This document shows, one piece after another, positions 14,803-23,880 of a stretch of 55,415 nt of DNA. The notes under the pieces were generated by a model that was not told the DNA's origin, searched no databases, and worked only from the letters and a program-made list of their open reading frames with translations. Numbering within the stretch: the first letter of the stretch is position 1; each line of letters begins with the position of its first letter. The stretch lies in the sequence record DRR723986_3079; one strand, given 5' to 3'. The position numbers and the translations under genes were made by a program.

Positions 14803-15684
14803 ATGACCCAAACCAAGGATCAGATAGCGCTTCAGCTCGCGGATGCCGGTTATATCGCGGACGAAGGTCTTGCGACGGCACTTCTGCTGACCGGAATGCT
14901 CGGGCGGCCGCTGCTTCTGGAAGGCGAAGCTGGTGTCGGCAAGACGGAAGTGGCGAAGGCTCTGGCGCGGCTCGAGAACACCGATCTCATACGACTGCAG
15001 TGCTATGAGGGCCTCGACCGTTCCGATGCCATCTACGAGTGGAACTATCAGCGCCAGCTTCTGGCCATCAAGGCGCGGGAAGGGTCTGGCGACAGCGCGG
15101 AAACTGTAGAGGAAGCGATTTTCTCCGAGAAATATCTTCTGGAACGCCCGCTTCTGGCGGCCATCCGAAAGGACGTGCCGCCGGTTCTGCTGATCGATGA
15201 AATCGACCGGGCGGATGAGGAATTCGAGGCATTCCTGCTTGAGATCCTGTCTGACTTCCAGGTGTCGATCCCGGAACTCGGAACGGTTCAGGCAGTTACA
15301 ATCCCACGCGTGGTTCTGACCTCAAATGGTACACGCGAACTGTCGGACGCATTGCGCCGGCGTTGCCTTTATCATTTCGTCGATTACCCCTCGCCCGACC
15401 GCGAAACACGAATTCTGTTGGCGCGTGTCCCGGATCTGGATGCTGCTCTCGCCCAACAGATCGCCGAACTCATGAACAAACTGCGCAAGGAAGACCTCGT
15501 GAAGGTTCCAGGCGTTGCCGAAACAATAGACTGGGCGGCGGCTCTTCTCGGCCTTGGGGCCAAAAACCTGCAGGAGAGCCGGGAGCTTGTCTTTGAGACG
15601 CTTTCTTGTGTCCTGAAAACCCGGGAGGACAGTGCCCGTGTCAGCCGCGAAGTCACCGACAGGTTGCTTGGAAAGGTGGCTTGA
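14803..15684 (+). CDS. coxD: MoxR-family AAA+ ATPase
   Basis: GEAGVGKT, LLIDEIDRADEEFEA, DALRRRC. Confidence 0.92.
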   Translation: MTQTKDQIALQLADAGYIADEGLATALLLTGMLGRPLLLEGEAGVGKTEVAKALARLENTDLIRLQCYEGLDRSDAIYEWNYQRQLLAIKAREGSGDSAETVEEAIFSEKYLLERPLLAAIRKDVPPVLLIDEIDRADEEFEAFLLEILSDFQVSIPELGTVQAVTIPRVVLTSNGTRELSDALRRRCLYHFVDYPSPDRETRILLARVPDLDAALAQQIAELMNKLRKEDLVKVPGVAETIDWAAALLGLGAKNLQESRELVFETLSCVLKTREDSARVSREVTDRLLGKVA

Positions 15685-15687
15685 GCA

Positions 15688-16887
15688 ATGTCCGGCCTTT
15701 TCCTTGAAACCAGTGCAGACATCGGGCCGATCCTGAGGCTGCGGCTGGCAGGCTTTGTCCGCTCACTGCGTGACAGTGGCTTCAAGGTCGGATTGGCCGA
15801 GACCCGGGATGCTAGCCGGTTGCTGTGTTCGCGGATGATTCAGCGCCCCGGAAGCTTGAAGGCGGCCTTTCGCAGTCTTTTTTGCGGACGCTTGTCTGAC
15901 TGGCAGCGTTTCGACGACATCTTCGATGCCTATTGGATCGGCAAGGGTGTCAAATCTGGCGTGAAGGTTACCGGGACGAGTACGCGCAAGGGCATGAAGA
16001 CCATTCGCGAGTTGATAGACGCAAGTGGTAACCATCAGGAGACAATTGCAGGCGATGTCGAACGCCTCCCCGGCGAAGAGGATGAGGCGTGCGACGACGC
16101 TCCCTCCGGGCGGCGGGAAGGTGCGAGCATTGCCGAAAACCTCGGCCAGCTGGATTTTCGACATCTCAGCGATCCGGAGGCGGTGAAACAGGCACATGAG
16201 CTTGCCGAACGGCTCGCACGGGCAATGCGCGTAAGACTGACCCGCAGGGATCGTCAAAAGCGAAAGGGCCGAAAGCTGGATCTTCGCAGAACCATCCACC
16301 GGTCCATTGCCCATGGCGGAGCACCTATTGAACTTGTGCGTAAAGGCCCTCGTGAGAAACAGTTGCGATTGGTGATCCTGCTCGATGCGTCCGGGTCGAT
16401 GAACAACTACACGGGTGTCTTCACTCGGTTCGTGCACGGTTTGCTTGATAGCTTCCGCGAAGCAGAAGCGTTTCTTTTTCATACCCGTCTTGTGCACGTC
16501 TCCTCAGCCCTTTCTGAGCGGGACGCCGGCCGTGCTCTCGATCGCATGGGGCTGATGGCGCAAGGGATCGGTGGCGGCACGAAGATCGGCGCGGCGCTGG
16601 CCGACTTCAACAGATGGCACGCCGCCCGGGTCGTCCACTCGCGCACCTGCGTCCTGATCCTGTCAGATGGCTACGACACAGGCACGCCGGAAGCACTTGG
16701 CGATGAGATGGCACGGTTACGTAGGCGCTGCAGGCGCATTGTCTGGCTCAACCCGCTGCTTGGCTGGCAGGGATATGAACCGACAGCCGGAGGCATGGCC
16801 GCCGCCCTGCCCCATGTCGATTTCTTCGCGCCAGCCCATAACCTCGCCAGCCTTGAAGCCCTAGAGCCTTATCTTGTGAGACTTTGA
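15688..16887 (+). CDS. coxE: VWA-domain CODH accessory protein
   Basis: LLDASGSM, GGGTKIG, ILSDGYD, WLNP. Confidence 0.92.
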   Translation: MSGLFLETSADIGPILRLRLAGFVRSLRDSGFKVGLAETRDASRLLCSRMIQRPGSLKAAFRSLFCGRLSDWQRFDDIFDAYWIGKGVKSGVKVTGTSTRKGMKTIRELIDASGNHQETIAGDVERLPGEEDEACDDAPSGRREGASIAENLGQLDFRHLSDPEAVKQAHELAERLARAMRVRLTRRDRQKRKGRKLDLRRTIHRSIAHGGAPIELVRKGPREKQLRLVILLDASGSMNNYTGVFTRFVHGLLDSFREAEAFLFHTRLVHVSSALSERDAGRALDRMGLMAQGIGGGTKIGAALADFNRWHAARVVHSRTCVLILSDGYDTGTPEALGDEMARLRRRCRRIVWLNPLLGWQGYEPTAGGMAAALPHVDFFAPAHNLASLEALEPYLVRL

Positions 16888-16890
16888 ACG

Positions 16891-17778
16891 ATGGGAGATG
16901 TCGAGATGAAGCATTCTGTTCCCGTGTCCGGTAAAGAGGCCTCACCAGAGGTCGTGCAGGACCTGCCGCGCCTGATGAACCGTTTGCAGAGTGACAACGA
17001 ACCCTTCGTTCTGGCAACCGTTGTACGCACAATATCGGTGACCGCGGCCAAGGCGGGCGCGAAGGCCGTGATCGACAGGAATGGAGACATTGTCGGCGGC
17101 TGGATCGGCGGTGGCTGCGCAAGATCGGCAGTCATCAAGGCGGCAAAGTCCGCTTTTGAAGATGGTCAGACACGATTGATCTCCCTTCAACCGGCGGACC
17201 TGCTGGCGGAAATCGGCGTGGAAGCCGGTGAGGAGCGCGAAGGCATTCAGTTTGCCCGGAACATGTGCCCGAGCCAGGGAACCATGGATATATTCATAGA
17301 ACCGGTTCTGCCGCGGCCCACGCTTGTCATCTACGGCGCCAGTCCGGTTGCCGTTGCCCTTGCGAGCCAGGCGCCTTCCATCGGATTTGACCTGACCTTC
17401 TGCGCGCCTGCAGAAGAGCTGTCCGTCTTTTCAGGTGCCGGAAAAAGAGCGGAAGGGTTTGACAGTCCCGTTCGAAGCAACGGGCATATCTACTCCATTG
17501 TTTCGACCCAGGGACGCGGCGATCTGGTGGCCCTGAAGGCAGCTCTTCTGACGGATGCGCGCCACATCGGGTTTGTCGGTAGCCGCCGAAAGATTGCAGC
17601 CCTGAAGGCGAAATTGCGCGAGGAAGGCGTAGCGGATCAGACCCTCGACCGGATCAAGGGGCCCGCAGGCCTTGATCTGGGAGCCATTGCACCGGAAGAA
17701 ATTGCACTCTCTATCCTGGCGGAACTTTTGATGATCCGCCGCAGCGGACACCGCCAGACCAACATCCATCACGTTTGA
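16891..17778 (+). CDS. coxF: XdhC/CoxF-family Moco insertion protein
   Basis: GWIGGGC, CPSQGTMDIFIEP, GPAGLDLGAIAPEEIALSI; exact start uncertain. Confidence 0.88.
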   Translation: MGDVEMKHSVPVSGKEASPEVVQDLPRLMNRLQSDNEPFVLATVVRTISVTAAKAGAKAVIDRNGDIVGGWIGGGCARSAVIKAAKSAFEDGQTRLISLQPADLLAEIGVEAGEEREGIQFARNMCPSQGTMDIFIEPVLPRPTLVIYGASPVAVALASQAPSIGFDLTFCAPAEELSVFSGAGKRAEGFDSPVRSNGHIYSIVSTQGRGDLVALKAALLTDARHIGFVGSRRKIAALKAKLREEGVADQTLDRIKGPAGLDLGAIAPEEIALSILAELLMIRRSGHRQTNIHHV

Positions 17779-17799
17779 CCCCACCAGGGAAGCAATCAC

Positions 17800-18405
17800 A
17801 TGCAAATGAACGACAGTCAGCGGATCGAAGCTCCAAAGCACAAGGTTTGGGAGGCATTGAATGATCCGGAAGTCCTGAAGGCCTCTATTCCGGGATGCGA
17901 AGACCTGATCAAGCATTCCGATACTGAACTGGAGGCGAAGGTACGTCTCAAGGTGGGCCCGGTAAAAGCAACTTTCGGCGGCAAGGTGACGCTCAACGAT
18001 CTCGATCCGCCTAACGGCTACACCATTGAAGGCGAAGGTTCCGGCGGGGTAGCCGGCTTTGCCAGAGGTGCTGCCAAGGTTCATCTGGAAGAAGACGGTC
18101 CTGATGCGACGATCCTTCACTACGAGGTTGATGCGAAGGTTGGCGGCAAGCTGGCGCAGCTTGGTGCCAGACTGATCGATTCAACCGCCAAACGGCTTGC
18201 CGGTGAGTTTTTTACCGCCTTCGGAGAACAGGTCGCCCCGGGAAAACCGGCTGCGACGAACGAGGTGGAAGCCGAGACCGCGCCAGCAGACGCTTCTCCT
18301 TCAGATGGCGAAGAGAAGAAGGGATGGATCAAAGGCCTTTTCACCGGCAAGAAAAAGCAGGACGTGGCTGGTGACGAGGGTAAGATCGACGAACCTGCGG
18401 AGTAA
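17800..18405 (+). CDS. coxG: CoxG (SRPBCC-fold) protein
   Basis: VWEALNDPEVLKASIPGCE, GGKLAQLGARLID. Confidence 0.92.
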   Translation: MQMNDSQRIEAPKHKVWEALNDPEVLKASIPGCEDLIKHSDTELEAKVRLKVGPVKATFGGKVTLNDLDPPNGYTIEGEGSGGVAGFARGAAKVHLEEDGPDATILHYEVDAKVGGKLAQLGARLIDSTAKRLAGEFFTAFGEQVAPGKPAATNEVEAETAPADASPSDGEEKKGWIKGLFTGKKKQDVAGDEGKIDEPAE

Positions 18406-18861: not shown

Positions 18862-18972
18862 AGCGCGCCTAGGGATCCGGTCGCAAGACGACGCAGGACC
18901 GAGAGGTGCAAGCCGGTTGAGAGGCACATGCCGACATAGACCGGTGACACGGCGGGACAAAAACCCGGGAGA
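18862..18972 (+). ncRNA. Guanidine-I (ykkC-yxkD) riboswitch
   Basis: CTAGGGATCCG...GGACCGAGAG...ACACGGCGGGACAAAAACCCGGGAG; lies upstream of guanidine transport and hydrolase genes. Confidence 0.88.
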
Positions 18973-19080
18973 CAACTGCACGAGGTTTCGCGCGCGCGAA
19001 CCTGCTCCCGGCCGTGCGCAAAAACCTCATGACGTAAGTCCGGTTCTGATGACCGGGCCCAAGACAGGAGACGCGCACAG

Positions 19081-20223: not shown

Positions 20224-21045
20224 ATGCGTATCATCAACCGGAAACCCTCCCGGGTCACCGCCCTGGCGCTTGGGCTCCTGCCTTTCGTGCTGACATTGGT
20301 CGCCTACGCGATTGCCAGCCATTATCGCCGGCTCGACAATCCGGCGGACAAGCTTCTCCCCTCCATCACCAGCATGGGAGAAGCCTTCTGGCGCATGGCG
20401 GCAGTGCCGGACCGGAGGTCGGGAGACCTTCTGCTCTGGTTGGATACTTTCGACAGTCTCTGGCGTCTTGGGACAGGGATGGCAGTGTCGACGCTTCTGG
20501 CAATCTCCCTTGGCATTGCAATCGGCTTCATTCCCCATATCCGAAGCGGACTGGCACCTTATCTCGCGACATTCTCGCTGATACCGCCGATCACCATCCT
20601 GCCGATCCTGTTCATCACCTTCGGTCTTGGCGAACTCGCGAAAATCGCCCTGATCGTGATCGGAACGGCACCGGTGATGATCCGTTCCACGGCCCAGGCG
20701 GTTCTGGACATTCCGCGGGAGATGATCATCAAGGCGGAAACACTTGGGGCCAGCGTCTTGCAAATGGTTACGCGGCTCGTGTTGCCGCAGGTGCTTCCGC
20801 ACCTGATCACCAGCCTGCGGCTTTCTCTCGTGCCAGCGTGGATCTTTCTGATTTCAGCCGAGGCCATCGCCTCCACGTCAGGGCTTGGGTACCGGATTTT
20901 CCTGGTGCGTCGCTATCTCGCGATGGATGTGATCCTGCCTTACGTCGTCTGGATCACGCTGCTGGCCTTCCTGCTCGACAGAGCCCTGCTCCTCCTGTCG
21001 CGCCGCGCTTTTCGCTGGCACCATCTGGGAGGTGACGCGCTATGA
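20224..21045 (+). CDS. ABC permease (TauC/SsuC type)
   Basis: Hydrophobic helices; KAETLGAS loop; SAEAIASTSGLGYRIFLVRRYLAMD. Confidence 0.9.
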   Translation: MRIINRKPSRVTALALGLLPFVLTLVAYAIASHYRRLDNPADKLLPSITSMGEAFWRMAAVPDRRSGDLLLWLDTFDSLWRLGTGMAVSTLLAISLGIAIGFIPHIRSGLAPYLATFSLIPPITILPILFITFGLGELAKIALIVIGTAPVMIRSTAQAVLDIPREMIIKAETLGASVLQMVTRLVLPQVLPHLITSLRLSLVPAWIFLISAEAIASTSGLGYRIFLVRRYLAMDVILPYVVWITLLAFLLDRALLLLSRRAFRWHHLGGDAL

Positions 21046-21884
21046 ACACTGCGTCCAAACTCTCGGTCCAGAACCTGGCAAAGTTATACGACGGCGTGCC
21101 TGTTCTCGAACGGGTCAACCTGGAAGTCCAGACCGGGTCTTTTTGCACGATCGTTGGAGCATCCGGCTGCGGAAAATCGACATTCCTGCGGATGCTGCTT
21201 TCCCAGGAACATCCAAGCCGTGGACAGATCCTCCTGGACGGCGCTCGCTTGCCACTTGAGCCGACACCCGATCGCGGGATCGTCTTCCAGAAATACTCGG
21301 TGTTTTCGCATCTGACCGTGGCTGAAAACCTCATCCTTGCGCAAGAGTTTGAATCGTCGCGCTGGACCGGGCGGCTTTTTGGTACTTCCCGCAAGGCGGC
21401 TTTTGGATCGTCCGACGACCTGCTTGACAGGATCGGGCTGCGACCAGCGGCAAACAAGTATCCGGCGCAGCTGTCCGGTGGCATGCAGCAACGTCTCGCG
21501 ATCGCCCAGGCCTTGATCAAGAAGCCAAGCATCCTGCTGCTCGACGAGCCTTTCGGCGCGCTAGACCCGGGTATACGCGTCGATATGCATGAATTGCTTC
21601 TGGGGCTCTGGAAAGAGTTGTCCATGACGGTTTTCATGGTGACGCACGATATTCACGAGGCCTTCAAGCTCGGCACGCGTCTGCTGGTGTTCGACAAGAT
21701 CCGCCACGACCCTCAAGCGCCACAAGCCTACGGCGCGACCATCACCTACGACCTGCCACTCAAATCGCCAACAGGAGCATCCTTGCGGTCTCCGGAGGCC
21801 ATCGCAGGTGCAATCGGCGCCCCACAGTCAAACAAGCCCACTCCGTCTTTCCAAAGCATCCATACCCCAAACAATCAGGAATGA
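21042..21884 (+). CDS. ABC ATP-binding protein
   Basis: GASGCGKST, LSGGMQQR, LLLDEPFGALD. Confidence 0.93.
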   Translation: MNTASKLSVQNLAKLYDGVPVLERVNLEVQTGSFCTIVGASGCGKSTFLRMLLSQEHPSRGQILLDGARLPLEPTPDRGIVFQKYSVFSHLTVAENLILAQEFESSRWTGRLFGTSRKAAFGSSDDLLDRIGLRPAANKYPAQLSGGMQQRLAIAQALIKKPSILLLDEPFGALDPGIRVDMHELLLGLWKELSMTVFMVTHDIHEAFKLGTRLLVFDKIRHDPQAPQAYGATITYDLPLKSPTGASLRSPEAIAGAIGAPQSNKPTPSFQSIHTPNNQE

Positions 21885-21894
21885 GGACCATCCC

Positions 21895-23133
21895 ATGAGT
21901 TTCAATCGAGCCTCAGGCCCCAGGACGCACCACCTTGCCGCAGGTCATTTCACCCGAGCCCCCAACCGAAGACAGCATCATCCTGACTTCGACAAACTGC
22001 AATTGCGGGGTTGGAAGGCCGCTGAAAAGGAAGGTGCCCTGCCCTCTGCCGCGTGGGAAAAGGAAAAAGCCTGGGCACTGCGAATGGGATTGACAGGATC
22101 GGATAGTCTCACCGACAAATCGATCCCGACCTTTGCCCGTGGAGAACTGCCCCACTATGCGGGGATCAACACCTTCCTGAAGGCGCCCTATATCGAGGAT
22201 GTGACAAAGGTCGGGGCTTATGATGCGGCCGTCATCGGCATCCCTTTCGATGGGGGCACCACTTACAGACCTGGTACACGGTTCGGGCCGCAAGGAGTTC
22301 GGAAGATTTCCGCGCTCTACACGCCCTACAACTACGAGATGGGTGTCGATCTTCGGGAACAGATGACGCTTTGCGATGTCGGTGACATCTTCACCATTCC
22401 TGCCAATATCGAGAAGACGTTCGACCAGATTACGCGGGCGGTCTCGCACGTCGCATCGTCCGGAGCCTTGCCGATCATGATCGGCGGCGATCATTCAATC
22501 GGATTTCCTTGCGTACGCGGGATTGCCCAGTGCACGTCCAAGCGCATTGGTATCGTGCATTTCGACCGGCATATCGACATTCAGGAAAAGGACCTGGATG
22601 AGCGGATGCATACGACGCCCTGGTTCCATGCGACCGATCTCGTCAACGTTCCGGCCGTCAATCTGGTCCAGATCGGAATTGGTGGCTGGCAGGTTCCGCG
22701 AGAAGGGGTGGAAGTTGCCCGGGAGCGGAATACCAACATCTTTACCATGCGCGATGTTGAGGAACTGGGATTGGCGGAAACGGCCGCACGGGCGCTGGAA
22801 CTGGCATGGAAGGACGCAGATGCAGTCTATATCTCGTTCGATATCGACAGTGTCGACTGCGGCTTCGTGCCCGGTACCGGCTGGCCGGAACCAGGTGGCT
22901 TCCTGCCGAGAGAGGCACTTGAGCTGGTGTCGCTGGTCGCGAAGGAAGGCATCTGCGGTCTGGAGGTCGTAGAAGTTTCACCACCTTACGATTGCTCCGA
23001 CATCACAGCCCTTCTGGCAACTCGGGTGATTGTAGATGTTCTCGGGACCCTGGTTTCCCATGGAAAAATGGGTTCGCATAAATCCATCATCGACAAGCCG
23101 GTGTCCATTCCGGCCGGTCCGGACGTGGAGTAA
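21895..23133 (+). CDS. gdmH: Guanidine hydrolase (ureohydrolase family, Ni-dependent GdmH-like)
   Basis: N-terminal extension with TFARGELPHYAGINTF; GGDHS, HFDRHID, SFDIDSVD, PGTGWPEPGG; riboswitch context; start at the ATG at 21895 after GAGGA. Confidence 0.85.
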   Translation: MSFNRASGPRTHHLAAGHFTRAPNRRQHHPDFDKLQLRGWKAAEKEGALPSAAWEKEKAWALRMGLTGSDSLTDKSIPTFARGELPHYAGINTFLKAPYIEDVTKVGAYDAAVIGIPFDGGTTYRPGTRFGPQGVRKISALYTPYNYEMGVDLREQMTLCDVGDIFTIPANIEKTFDQITRAVSHVASSGALPIMIGGDHSIGFPCVRGIAQCTSKRIGIVHFDRHIDIQEKDLDERMHTTPWFHATDLVNVPAVNLVQIGIGGWQVPREGVEVARERNTNIFTMRDVEELGLAETAARALELAWKDADAVYISFDIDSVDCGFVPGTGWPEPGGFLPREALELVSLVAKEGICGLEVVEVSPPYDCSDITALLATRVIVDVLGTLVSHGKMGSHKSIIDKPVSIPAGPDVE

Positions 23134-23137
23134 GGCG

Positions 23138-23650
23138 ATGGCGCGACATCATCGCGGGCACGATCACCATGTTCACCACGATCATGAACATGGTCATCAC
23201 CACCACCACCACACACATGACCACGATCATGGAAGTCTCGCCGGACATAATCACGTGGGCCCGGACCATCTGCATTCTCATGTTCATGGGGCCTCGCATG
23301 CGGACCGGGCCGAAGAACTGCAGGCACTTGCGGTGAGCTTCATCGACGGCTTTCGGGCTGCCGACGACAAGACCAGTTACCTGCGTCTTGCAGGCGTCCC
23401 GTTTCACCGCCCCGGTGCCGATGGTCTCATACAGCACCTTGTCGACGCAAAGATCGTCAGCAATTGGCAGGTCGGCACAGCCTCGCCGGCCTTTGCTTCC
23501 CGAGAACTCGTCTACATGAGTTTTCCAGGTTCAATGGTCCAAGCCCGGGAAACCATGACCTTCACCTTTGTATCCCTGTCGCAACGGTCAGACATTGACC
23601 TCATCGACATCCTCACCACTCGTCTGGCCCATGGAGATATCGCAGAATGA
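23138..23650 (+). CDS. His-rich protein of unknown function, candidate Ni chaperone
   Basis: 25 His in the first 54 aa, then a ~115-aa globular domain; starts 4 nt after the gdmH stop. Confidence 0.8.
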   Translation: MARHHRGHDHHVHHDHEHGHHHHHHTHDHDHGSLAGHNHVGPDHLHSHVHGASHADRAEELQALAVSFIDGFRAADDKTSYLRLAGVPFHRPGADGLIQHLVDAKIVSNWQVGTASPAFASRELVYMSFPGSMVQARETMTFTFVSLSQRSDIDLIDILTTRLAHGDIAE

Positions 23651-23880
23651 AACAGCTTTTGATGACGTCAATTCTTGCCTTGGCATCCACCCCTGCATTT
23701 GCACACCCTGGTGCGCACGATCATCTGACCGGTTGGCAAGGCGCAGGTGAGCATCTGCTTGGCTCGCCATTTCATCAGCTGCTGCTCGTCGTGGCTGTTA
23801 GCGGGCTGGTTCTGGCCGTTTCCCTGGTCCGGAAATCGAAAAAAACCACGAGGAAACAGCCTGTAGAACGCAGGTCCTGA
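23647..23880 (+). CDS. Small HupE/UreJ-N-terminus-like membrane protein
   Basis: Signal peptide ending AFA, then HPGAHDH, HLLGSPFH, one TM helix and a basic tail; ATGA overlap. Confidence 0.65.
   Translation: MKQLLMTSILALASTPAFAHPGAHDHLTGWQGAGEHLLGSPFHQLLLVVAVSGLVLAVSLVRKSKKTTRKQPVERRS

Follow-up and report, generated by a model that had tools for sequence, protein, structure and literature searches.

A histidine-rich protein encoded behind GdmH-type guanidine hydrolase genes of Alphaproteobacteria is a candidate nickel-maturation factor

The locus described here touches the question of how Ni, rather than Mn, enters guanidine hydrolases where HypA/HypB-type helpers are missing. Recombinant Ni ureohydrolases require coexpressed Ni chaperones (PMC11399263; PMC10927577), and the metformin and dimethylguanidine hydrolases needed both HypA and HypB (PMC11399263). 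Cyanobacterial gdmH commonly occurs together with ghaA and ghaB according to section 5 of PMC12704784, section 5 of PMC11410670 reports comammox gdmH loci without Ni chaperones, and the latter paper leaves open, for its own enzyme, how Ni rather than Mn enters without helpers of the HypA/HypB type. We analyzed a 55,415-nucleotide stretch of DNA (record DRR723986_3079; hereafter, the window) from a Roseibium-like genome, in which a GdmH-type gene is followed by a gene for a 170-aa, extremely His-rich protein (23138 to 23650, + strand), here called the partner. An initial annotation, made from the letters and their reading frames, had proposed that this protein is a Ni chaperone or store. We consider it about 60% probable that the partner is a Ni-maturation factor dedicated to GdmH, with a folded domain that likely docks on the apo-enzyme and a tail that buffers or supplies Ni.

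Translation of the gene gives 25 His within residues 1 to 54, 28 His in total, and no Cys in 170 aa, with His6 at residues 20 to 25, GHNH at 36 to 39, and HLHSH at 44 to 48. The His count and tail motifs in the initial annotation are thus borne out, as are the domain motifs that it listed and its description of the domain as Cys-free. The maximum in all other stretches of the window's six frames is 10 His per 54 residues, so the His density of the partner is far above the window background. As a start codon, the GTG at 23036 would give a 98-nt overlap with the end of the hydrolase gene, whose stop lies at 23133; the ATG at 23138, which the annotation had preferred, has GGAG in front of it, lies 4 nt past the upstream stop, and is equivalent to the start Met of P0002, the nearest database homologue. 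The gap between the two genes is also 4 to 5 nt in most close loci, and we adopt the ATG. RNA-library contigs from four runs overlap the partner gene, and one of them begins at 18873, within the riboswitch described below; we rejected them as evidence for a transcript start or for expression, since contigs can show neither and DNA may be present. In three of the four runs, the contigs of relatives differ by in-frame 6-nt insertions within the His tract, which fits a real coding frame.

The operon runs, all on the + strand, from a Guanidine-I riboswitch aptamer (RF00442, 18858 to 18973; cmscan score of 64.8 bits against a gathering score of 63, E = 2.7e-9, full model) through genes for an ABC substrate-binding protein (TIGR03427, 19081 to 20151; 560 bits, cut-off 334), an ABC permease (20224 to 21045; PF00528, E = 1.9e-19), an ABC ATPase (21042 to 21884; PF00005, E = 2.7e-31), a GdmH-type guanidine hydrolase of the ureohydrolase fold (21895 to 23133, with an inferred start codon), and the partner, to a 77-aa membrane protein (23647 to 23880) that resembles the N-terminal third of HupE/UreJ and whose gene overlaps the partner stop by 4 nt. 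The riboswitch and the example of Synechocystis GimABC (PMC12704784) make it likely that the binding protein is specific for guanidine and is a subunit of its importer. A terminator scan found no intrinsic terminator between the riboswitch and the first gene (18974 to 19080), and the promoter and terminator scan gave results at chance level. Upstream of the operon, at 14803 to 18405, lies a cluster with a CoxG gene (Pfam) and genes presumably of the AAA ATPase, VWA, and XdhC types, a set typical of carbon monoxide dehydrogenase accessory genes.

The assignment of the hydrolase comes from its PDB matches and metal motifs. Its best matches over about 350 residues are the guanidine hydrolases of Synechocystis (7ESR/7OI1, E = 6e-162) and Nitrospira (9FEK, E = 1.5e-158), with the next family at E = 6e-51, and the motifs GGDH, HFDRHID, and FDIDS are present. 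The protein has the N-terminal extension of the GdmH clade and keeps equivalents of Thr105, His222, Trp313, and Glu344 of Nitrospira inopinata, which PMC11410670 names as specificity residues; they correspond to T152, H268, W359, and E389 in ORF numbering, a mapping that takes a two-residue offset from the PDB-search alignment. From this homology and the riboswitch, we infer that the enzyme of the window and its alphaproteobacterial relatives carry out Ni-dependent guanidine hydrolysis.

The two genes are tied together across genomes. Among GTDB loci, of which the best 80 of 131 were kept, gdmH lies immediately upstream of the partner in 80/80, as it does in G001, the genome that serves as a stand-in for the whole genome of the window (81 loci in all). 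When the order was sampled evenly (251 genomes), the partner domain was found in 35 and GdmH (E ≤ 1e-100) in the identical 35, or about 14%, with neither in the other 216; these counts include kin genomes, which are not independent observations. The 35 genomes hold 36 gene pairs, two of them in G544, and all are adjacent by coordinates. A sample of 401 genomes of the phylum contained GdmH in 7, each an alphaproteobacterial genome in which the domain follows directly, and among 301 genomes of the class, which were searched for the domain and checked for GdmH at the domain loci, the domain occurred in 7, each time behind GdmH. For 28 metagenome loci of a divergent subfamily (subfamily 3, below), GdmH is upstream in 22, the contig ends within 70 nt upstream in 5, and an IS-like element occupies that place in 1. 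Outside the class Alphaproteobacteria the tie is not universal: four actinobacterial GdmH-like loci were found, and the domain was missing within 6 kb in all three that were inspected, so GdmH can exist without the partner. At least two loci look decayed: in G422 (L223:8467-9981), gdmH is truncated at its N-terminal end, 16 kb of sequence contains no gene for a binding protein, and urease gave no match; in G446 (L103), gdmH matches only in part and a stop interrupts the partner gene.

The partner is in this way encoded and codistributed with a putative Ni enzyme, as a metallochaperone would be (35/251 shared genomes; 80/80 loci). The initial annotation had named homologues unlinked to Ni enzymes as grounds against its own proposal; a GdmH-type hydrolase was tied to the partner in every intact case examined, and the link to this putative Ni enzyme is strongly supported. 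Pairwise distances of GdmH and partner sequences correlate with a Spearman coefficient of 0.83 (maximum of 0.29 in 1,000 shuffles), and the 15 members with a WQTPH motif form one clade in both trees; we rejected the correlation as a sign of physical contact because it is expected from gene linkage.

A homologue search with partner residues 55 to 170 returned 425 proteins at E ≤ 1e-3 among 476 candidates, and a domain-only profile search of 1.84 billion sequences returned 144 representatives at 50% identity. The nearest named homologue is from Roseibium aggregatum (100% over residues 55 to 170), and one named member derives from a Myxococcota metagenome-assembled genome. No Pfam domain was found in the 120 homologues listed, all of which are named hypothetical or uncharacterized. 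Three subfamilies can be distinguished. The N-terminal tail ends in HN..HLHSH in subfamily 1, to which the window protein belongs, and in HN..WQTPH in subfamily 2; subfamily 3 is a shorter form in which the His tract is mostly C-terminal. With approximate domain boundaries, at least 4 His follow the domain in 78/120 members of subfamily 3, precede it in 14/120, and are found at neither end in 28/120, so a tract is retained at one end or the other in 92/120. Close homologues have a median of 20 His.

By these comparisons, the tail has two parts. Residues 1 to 35 (23138 to 23242, + strand) are a variable poly-His stretch, predicted to be disordered (pLDDT of about 55), that differs in length and sequence among homologues. 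Residues 36 to 50 (23243 to 23287, + strand) form a conserved core, GHNH..HLHSHxH, that is a candidate for a specific metal site. The pattern H[ND]..[LF][HR]SH was found in 111/120 homologues, and within the H37-N38...H44-L-H-S-H48 core, residues H37, N38, and H44 are 98 to 100% kept in subfamilies 1 and 2 and missing from most of subfamily 3. In the domain, the residues common to the three subfamilies are hydrophobic, Gly, or Pro (F68, G71, F72, L82, L84, A85, P88, L101, G113, P117, Y126, P128, P130, F142, and Y144), plus D77, which is likely a helix cap; several fall within a hairpin at residues 110 to 130. The window protein itself has Ser at residue 128 (23519 to 23521) of this hairpin, where 94 to 100% of each subfamily have Pro. 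Across the three subfamilies, the domain holds no conserved His, Cys, or acidic residue except D77 and an acidic residue at position 60, so a metal site within the domain itself is not evident. Since the tail moves or shrinks in subfamily 3 and the domain residues are shared, comparison of the sequences points to the folded domain as the constant element and to the His tail, N-terminal, C-terminal, or short by subfamily, as the adjustable one. We rejected apparent fusions of the partner to arginase, HupE/UreJ, or an NMT1 binding protein (6 longer proteins, together with P0179 and P0226) as real proteins, in most cases because the linkers look out of frame and read as frameshifted joins of neighboring genes; P0412 looks like a deletion or an assembly join. 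These fusions reflect adjacency only.

The folded alpha/beta domain covers residues 54 to 165 (23297 to 23632, + strand), with the conserved Gly/Pro-rich beta-hairpin at residues 110 to 130. An AlphaFold2 model of residues 36 to 170 made with a 70-sequence alignment (pLDDT, 86.6; pTM, 0.71) predicts two helices, a beta-sheet with a long hairpin, and a closing helix; a model from a narrower alignment left the hairpin unresolved. Searches of solved structures with the two models gave no match of note, with best E values of 0.15 and, for the 70-sequence model, 0.45 in Foldseek (weak COMMD-like and PF0246 rows, TM under 0.3) and best Z values of 3.9 and, for the 70-sequence model, 3.8 in VIA-align; such blanks are evidence neither of kinship nor of a new fold. 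UreE, HypA, CooJ, and CooT folds were not among the structural matches listed, beyond which a family may still lie. A PDB profile search gave tag-like matches only (E = 0.79). Neither Pfam nor NCBIfam yielded a match to the window protein at E ≤ 0.1, and no family member scored above the Pfam cut-off (0/70, and 0/12 nonjoined members in a separate check). A lead to DUF1800 (PF08811), based on Atlas feature matches of 0.96 to 0.97 to clusters 19 to 55% positive, was rejected after 0/70 members matched at E ≤ 1. A match to a known, unrelated family, which the initial annotation had also counted against its proposal, was therefore not found in the Pfam, NCBIfam, PDB profile, or fold searches.

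The families of known Ni helpers gave similar results. For HypA/GhaA (PF01155, N-terminal MHE Ni site, and two CxxC pairs), there was no Pfam match, the partner has no Cys, and hhalign to the HypA of G001 gave a probability of 0.6%. For the HypB/GhaB/UreG/CobW GTPases (PF02492, TIGR00073), there was no Pfam or NCBIfam match, and Walker A is absent from the sequence, so the P-loop and HypA-type CxxC pairs are missing, as the initial annotation had stated. For UreE (PF02814, PF05194), 0/70 family members matched at E ≤ 1, and hhalign gave a probability of 0.4%. The partner also departs from Hpn and Hpn-like proteins in being 170 aa long with a confidently modeled domain of 110 residues.

A constant domain with an adjustable tail could also be explained if the partner were a folding or assembly factor, stabilizing subunit, or regulator of the GdmH hexamer, with the domain carrying out the function and the His tail serving as an optional buffer for metal. 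The domain is indeed the universal part, conservation in it falls on hydrophobic, Gly, and Pro residues, and the tail is mobile or short. Against this explanation, most members keep a His tract at either end, as the counts above show even for subfamily 3, and the cyanobacterial and comammox GdmH structures 7OI1 and 9FEK are homo-oligomers without a partner-like subunit. Heteromeric ureohydrolases are known (PMC11399263), but in cyanobacteria the same slot is filled by Ni maturases, and we regard this explanation as rather unlikely, although it is the strongest competitor.

We also surveyed Ni genes near and far from the operon. No HypA or HypB gene was found in any of the 80 close loci, which extend up to 8 kb on each side (less for some). 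Among 41 positive genomes, each at least 90% complete, HypA occurs in 12 and HypB over the cut-off in 9, none beside gdmH. Four HypA loci that we inspected (G001, G100, G316, and G526) look like hydrogenase clusters, some of their gene labels being presumptive; those of G316 and G526 encode an 87-aa HypA without the zinc-finger half (L171:6569-6829, L172:5911-6171; PF01155 positions 1 to 65 only). A HypB/UreG-type GTPase match is present in 40/41 positive genomes, the inspected sub-cut-off HypB matches being UreG, and the sole exception is G422, with its truncated gdmH and no urease.

The gene that follows the partner is of the full HupE/UreJ type in G468 and G498 (PF04955, E of about 6e-55), in G405, G750, and metagenome locus L199 (tblastn), and in G501 (by sequence), and encodes a small HupE-like protein of 60 to 90 aa in 42/81 close loci. 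Four His of the small protein align with N-terminal His of HupE/UreJ. The 77-aa protein of the window has a signal-like sequence, AxA-HPGxH..H..H, and one hydrophobic helix, and its only Pfam match is a weak one to DUF6732 below the cut-off (E = 0.004). Members of the small family (window, 23647 to 23880; L165:3111-3329; L202:6402-6614; L208:6397-6612) share a signal-like AxA-H-x-G-x-H, two further His, and one hydrophobic helix. Their genes stand where full HupE/UreJ stands in other loci and are also found between ureA and ureB, and L165 has a similar gene within a urease operon. The small protein is possibly a minimal Ni-capture protein.

The near-universal GTPase raises the possibility that the partner is an adaptor that lets UreG, with UreE and UreF, load Ni into GdmH, a UreD-like role with a nonurease target. 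Full urease operons flank the guanidine operon in L164 and L165 (G509 and G102), and in three genomes of one genus, ureEFG lies beside it with ureDABC elsewhere. On the other hand, urease is expected anyway because GdmH makes urea, the relocation of ureEFG is one event in one genus, urease genes lie within 8 kb in only 1/80 close loci, and the partner has no sequence similarity to UreE; we therefore give this adaptor role a lower probability than a subunit or assembly function. The split urease operons are an observation in their own right: ureEFG is divergent beside the guanidine operon (L166:9962-11729, L167:7316-9276, L168:6598-8363), ureDABC is at a separate site (L220 to L222), and we rejected the idea that this ureEFG is an extra dedicated copy because ureDABC has no ureEFG within 18 kb in any of the three genomes.

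The closest functional parallels to the partner are defined by gene position. GhaA/GhaB (Sll1078/Sll1079) of Synechocystis GdmH and HypA/HypB of the metformin and dimethylguanidine hydrolases share with it the slot immediately after or next to a Ni ureohydrolase gene, within a guanidine operon that includes an ABC importer (PMC12704784; PMC11399263). HypB in these operons is also His-rich, and HupE/UreJ follows there too. In contrast to both pairs, the partner is one gene, not two, and lacks the CxxC zinc site, the P-loop GTPase, and any HypA similarity. By analogy, the partner likely takes the place in Alphaproteobacteria of the cyanobacterial HypA/HypB-like GhaA/GhaB pair, the mutual exclusion of the two being drawn from the papers. 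UreE resembles the partner in having a folded domain plus a His-rich tail, and its tail is dispensable for delivery in Klebsiella aerogenes (PMC7055735), which parallels the variable tail of the partner. However, a conserved His sits at the dimer interface of UreE, the partner domain has no conserved His, and the two show no sequence similarity by hhalign and no fold match among the top rows.

CooJ and Hpn or Hpn-like proteins are likewise small and very His-dense and bind several Ni ions each, with Kd values in the micromolar range (PMC8704837, Table 4). The partner, with 25 His in 54 residues, is in the range of Hpn (28/60), HypB (24/39), and CooJ (16/34) in the same table. It differs from CooJ and Hpn in having an alpha/beta domain of 110 residues and in being tied to a ureohydrolase. 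CooJ folds as a coiled coil, and Hpn lacks a globular domain, Hpn-type stores being about 60 to 70 aa and nearly all His-rich; His tracts in general also bind Zn, Co, and Cu. An Hpn-like Ni store or detoxifier that is coinduced with GdmH and never touches the enzyme would account for a His density equal to that of Hpn and for a tail predicted to be disordered, yet here the domain is conserved and some members are almost tail-less, and a general store is not expected to track one enzyme in 35/35 genomes and be absent from the other 216. We thus find a store improbable, and this option of the initial annotation is disfavored, since conservation lies in the folded domain. A role for the partner in guanidine metabolism as a small enzyme or ligand-binding protein is highly improbable: MgdL, which was hypothetical when first seen in a guanidine operon and turned out to be a lyase (PMC12508155), offers a precedent, but the partner subfamilies share no conserved polar residues of a catalytic type, and the His tail would be left unexplained.

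A GdmH-dedicated Ni-maturation factor would work as follows. Guanidine would turn the operon on, and the ABC system would import it. Ni would enter via HupE/UreJ or via the small HupE-like product of the following gene, and the poly-His tail may collect several Ni as a local reservoir, as is plausible from its His content and by analogy to the His-rich tails of UreE, HypB, and CooJ. The folded domain would bind apo-GdmH through the conserved hairpin at residues 110 to 130, a docking suggested by the co-occurrence and the hairpin itself, and this binding may favor Ni rather than Mn in the buried two-metal site. In subfamily 1, the HN..HLHSH core beside the domain is a candidate hand-over site. 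The partner has no nucleotide-binding motif and so would work without a GTPase or with a borrowed one (UreG). The initial annotation had given Ni binding to the tail and docking on the hydrolase to the domain; the link to a putative Ni enzyme has strong support from co-occurrence, and the tail is not the invariant part, as it moves and shrinks and the domain is constant.

A stronger version is that the partner is a single-component, GTPase-free Ni insertase of unsolved fold that suffices alone to load the di-metal site of GdmH, in many marine lineages with a minimal HupE-like Ni-capture peptide; we hold this only as a tentative possibility. If true, it would add a third maturation route for Ni enzymes to those of Hyp and Ure. 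A maturation role of any kind would bring a new fold to the few known Ni chaperones and could provide a one-gene tool for producing active Ni ureohydrolases. The operon type is already known from Synechocystis, and the partner family is apparently undescribed: the papers listed by full-text literature searches include none on it. Carriers of GdmH in the order, with marine Roseibium and rhizobia among the relatives found, are mostly without HypA/HypB, and the family flags guanidine as a source of nitrogen for many alphaproteobacteria of sea and soil.

The operon also occurs in a record titled Flavobacteriaceae (L048), with a GdmH 90% identical to that of the window, which reflects mislabeling, misbinning, or transfer. 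Some operons have one or two extra genes after the binding-protein gene; L036:3972-5024 and its relatives form a cluster of 13 loci, and inserts between the binding protein and permease genes are found in L007, L008, L022, L025, L033, L036, L037, L076, and L081. One of the extra genes presumably encodes a 2OG/Fe(II) dioxygenase. By analogy to MgdH/MgdL (PMC12508155), this insert suggests a methylguanidine-demethylation module that would feed GdmH.
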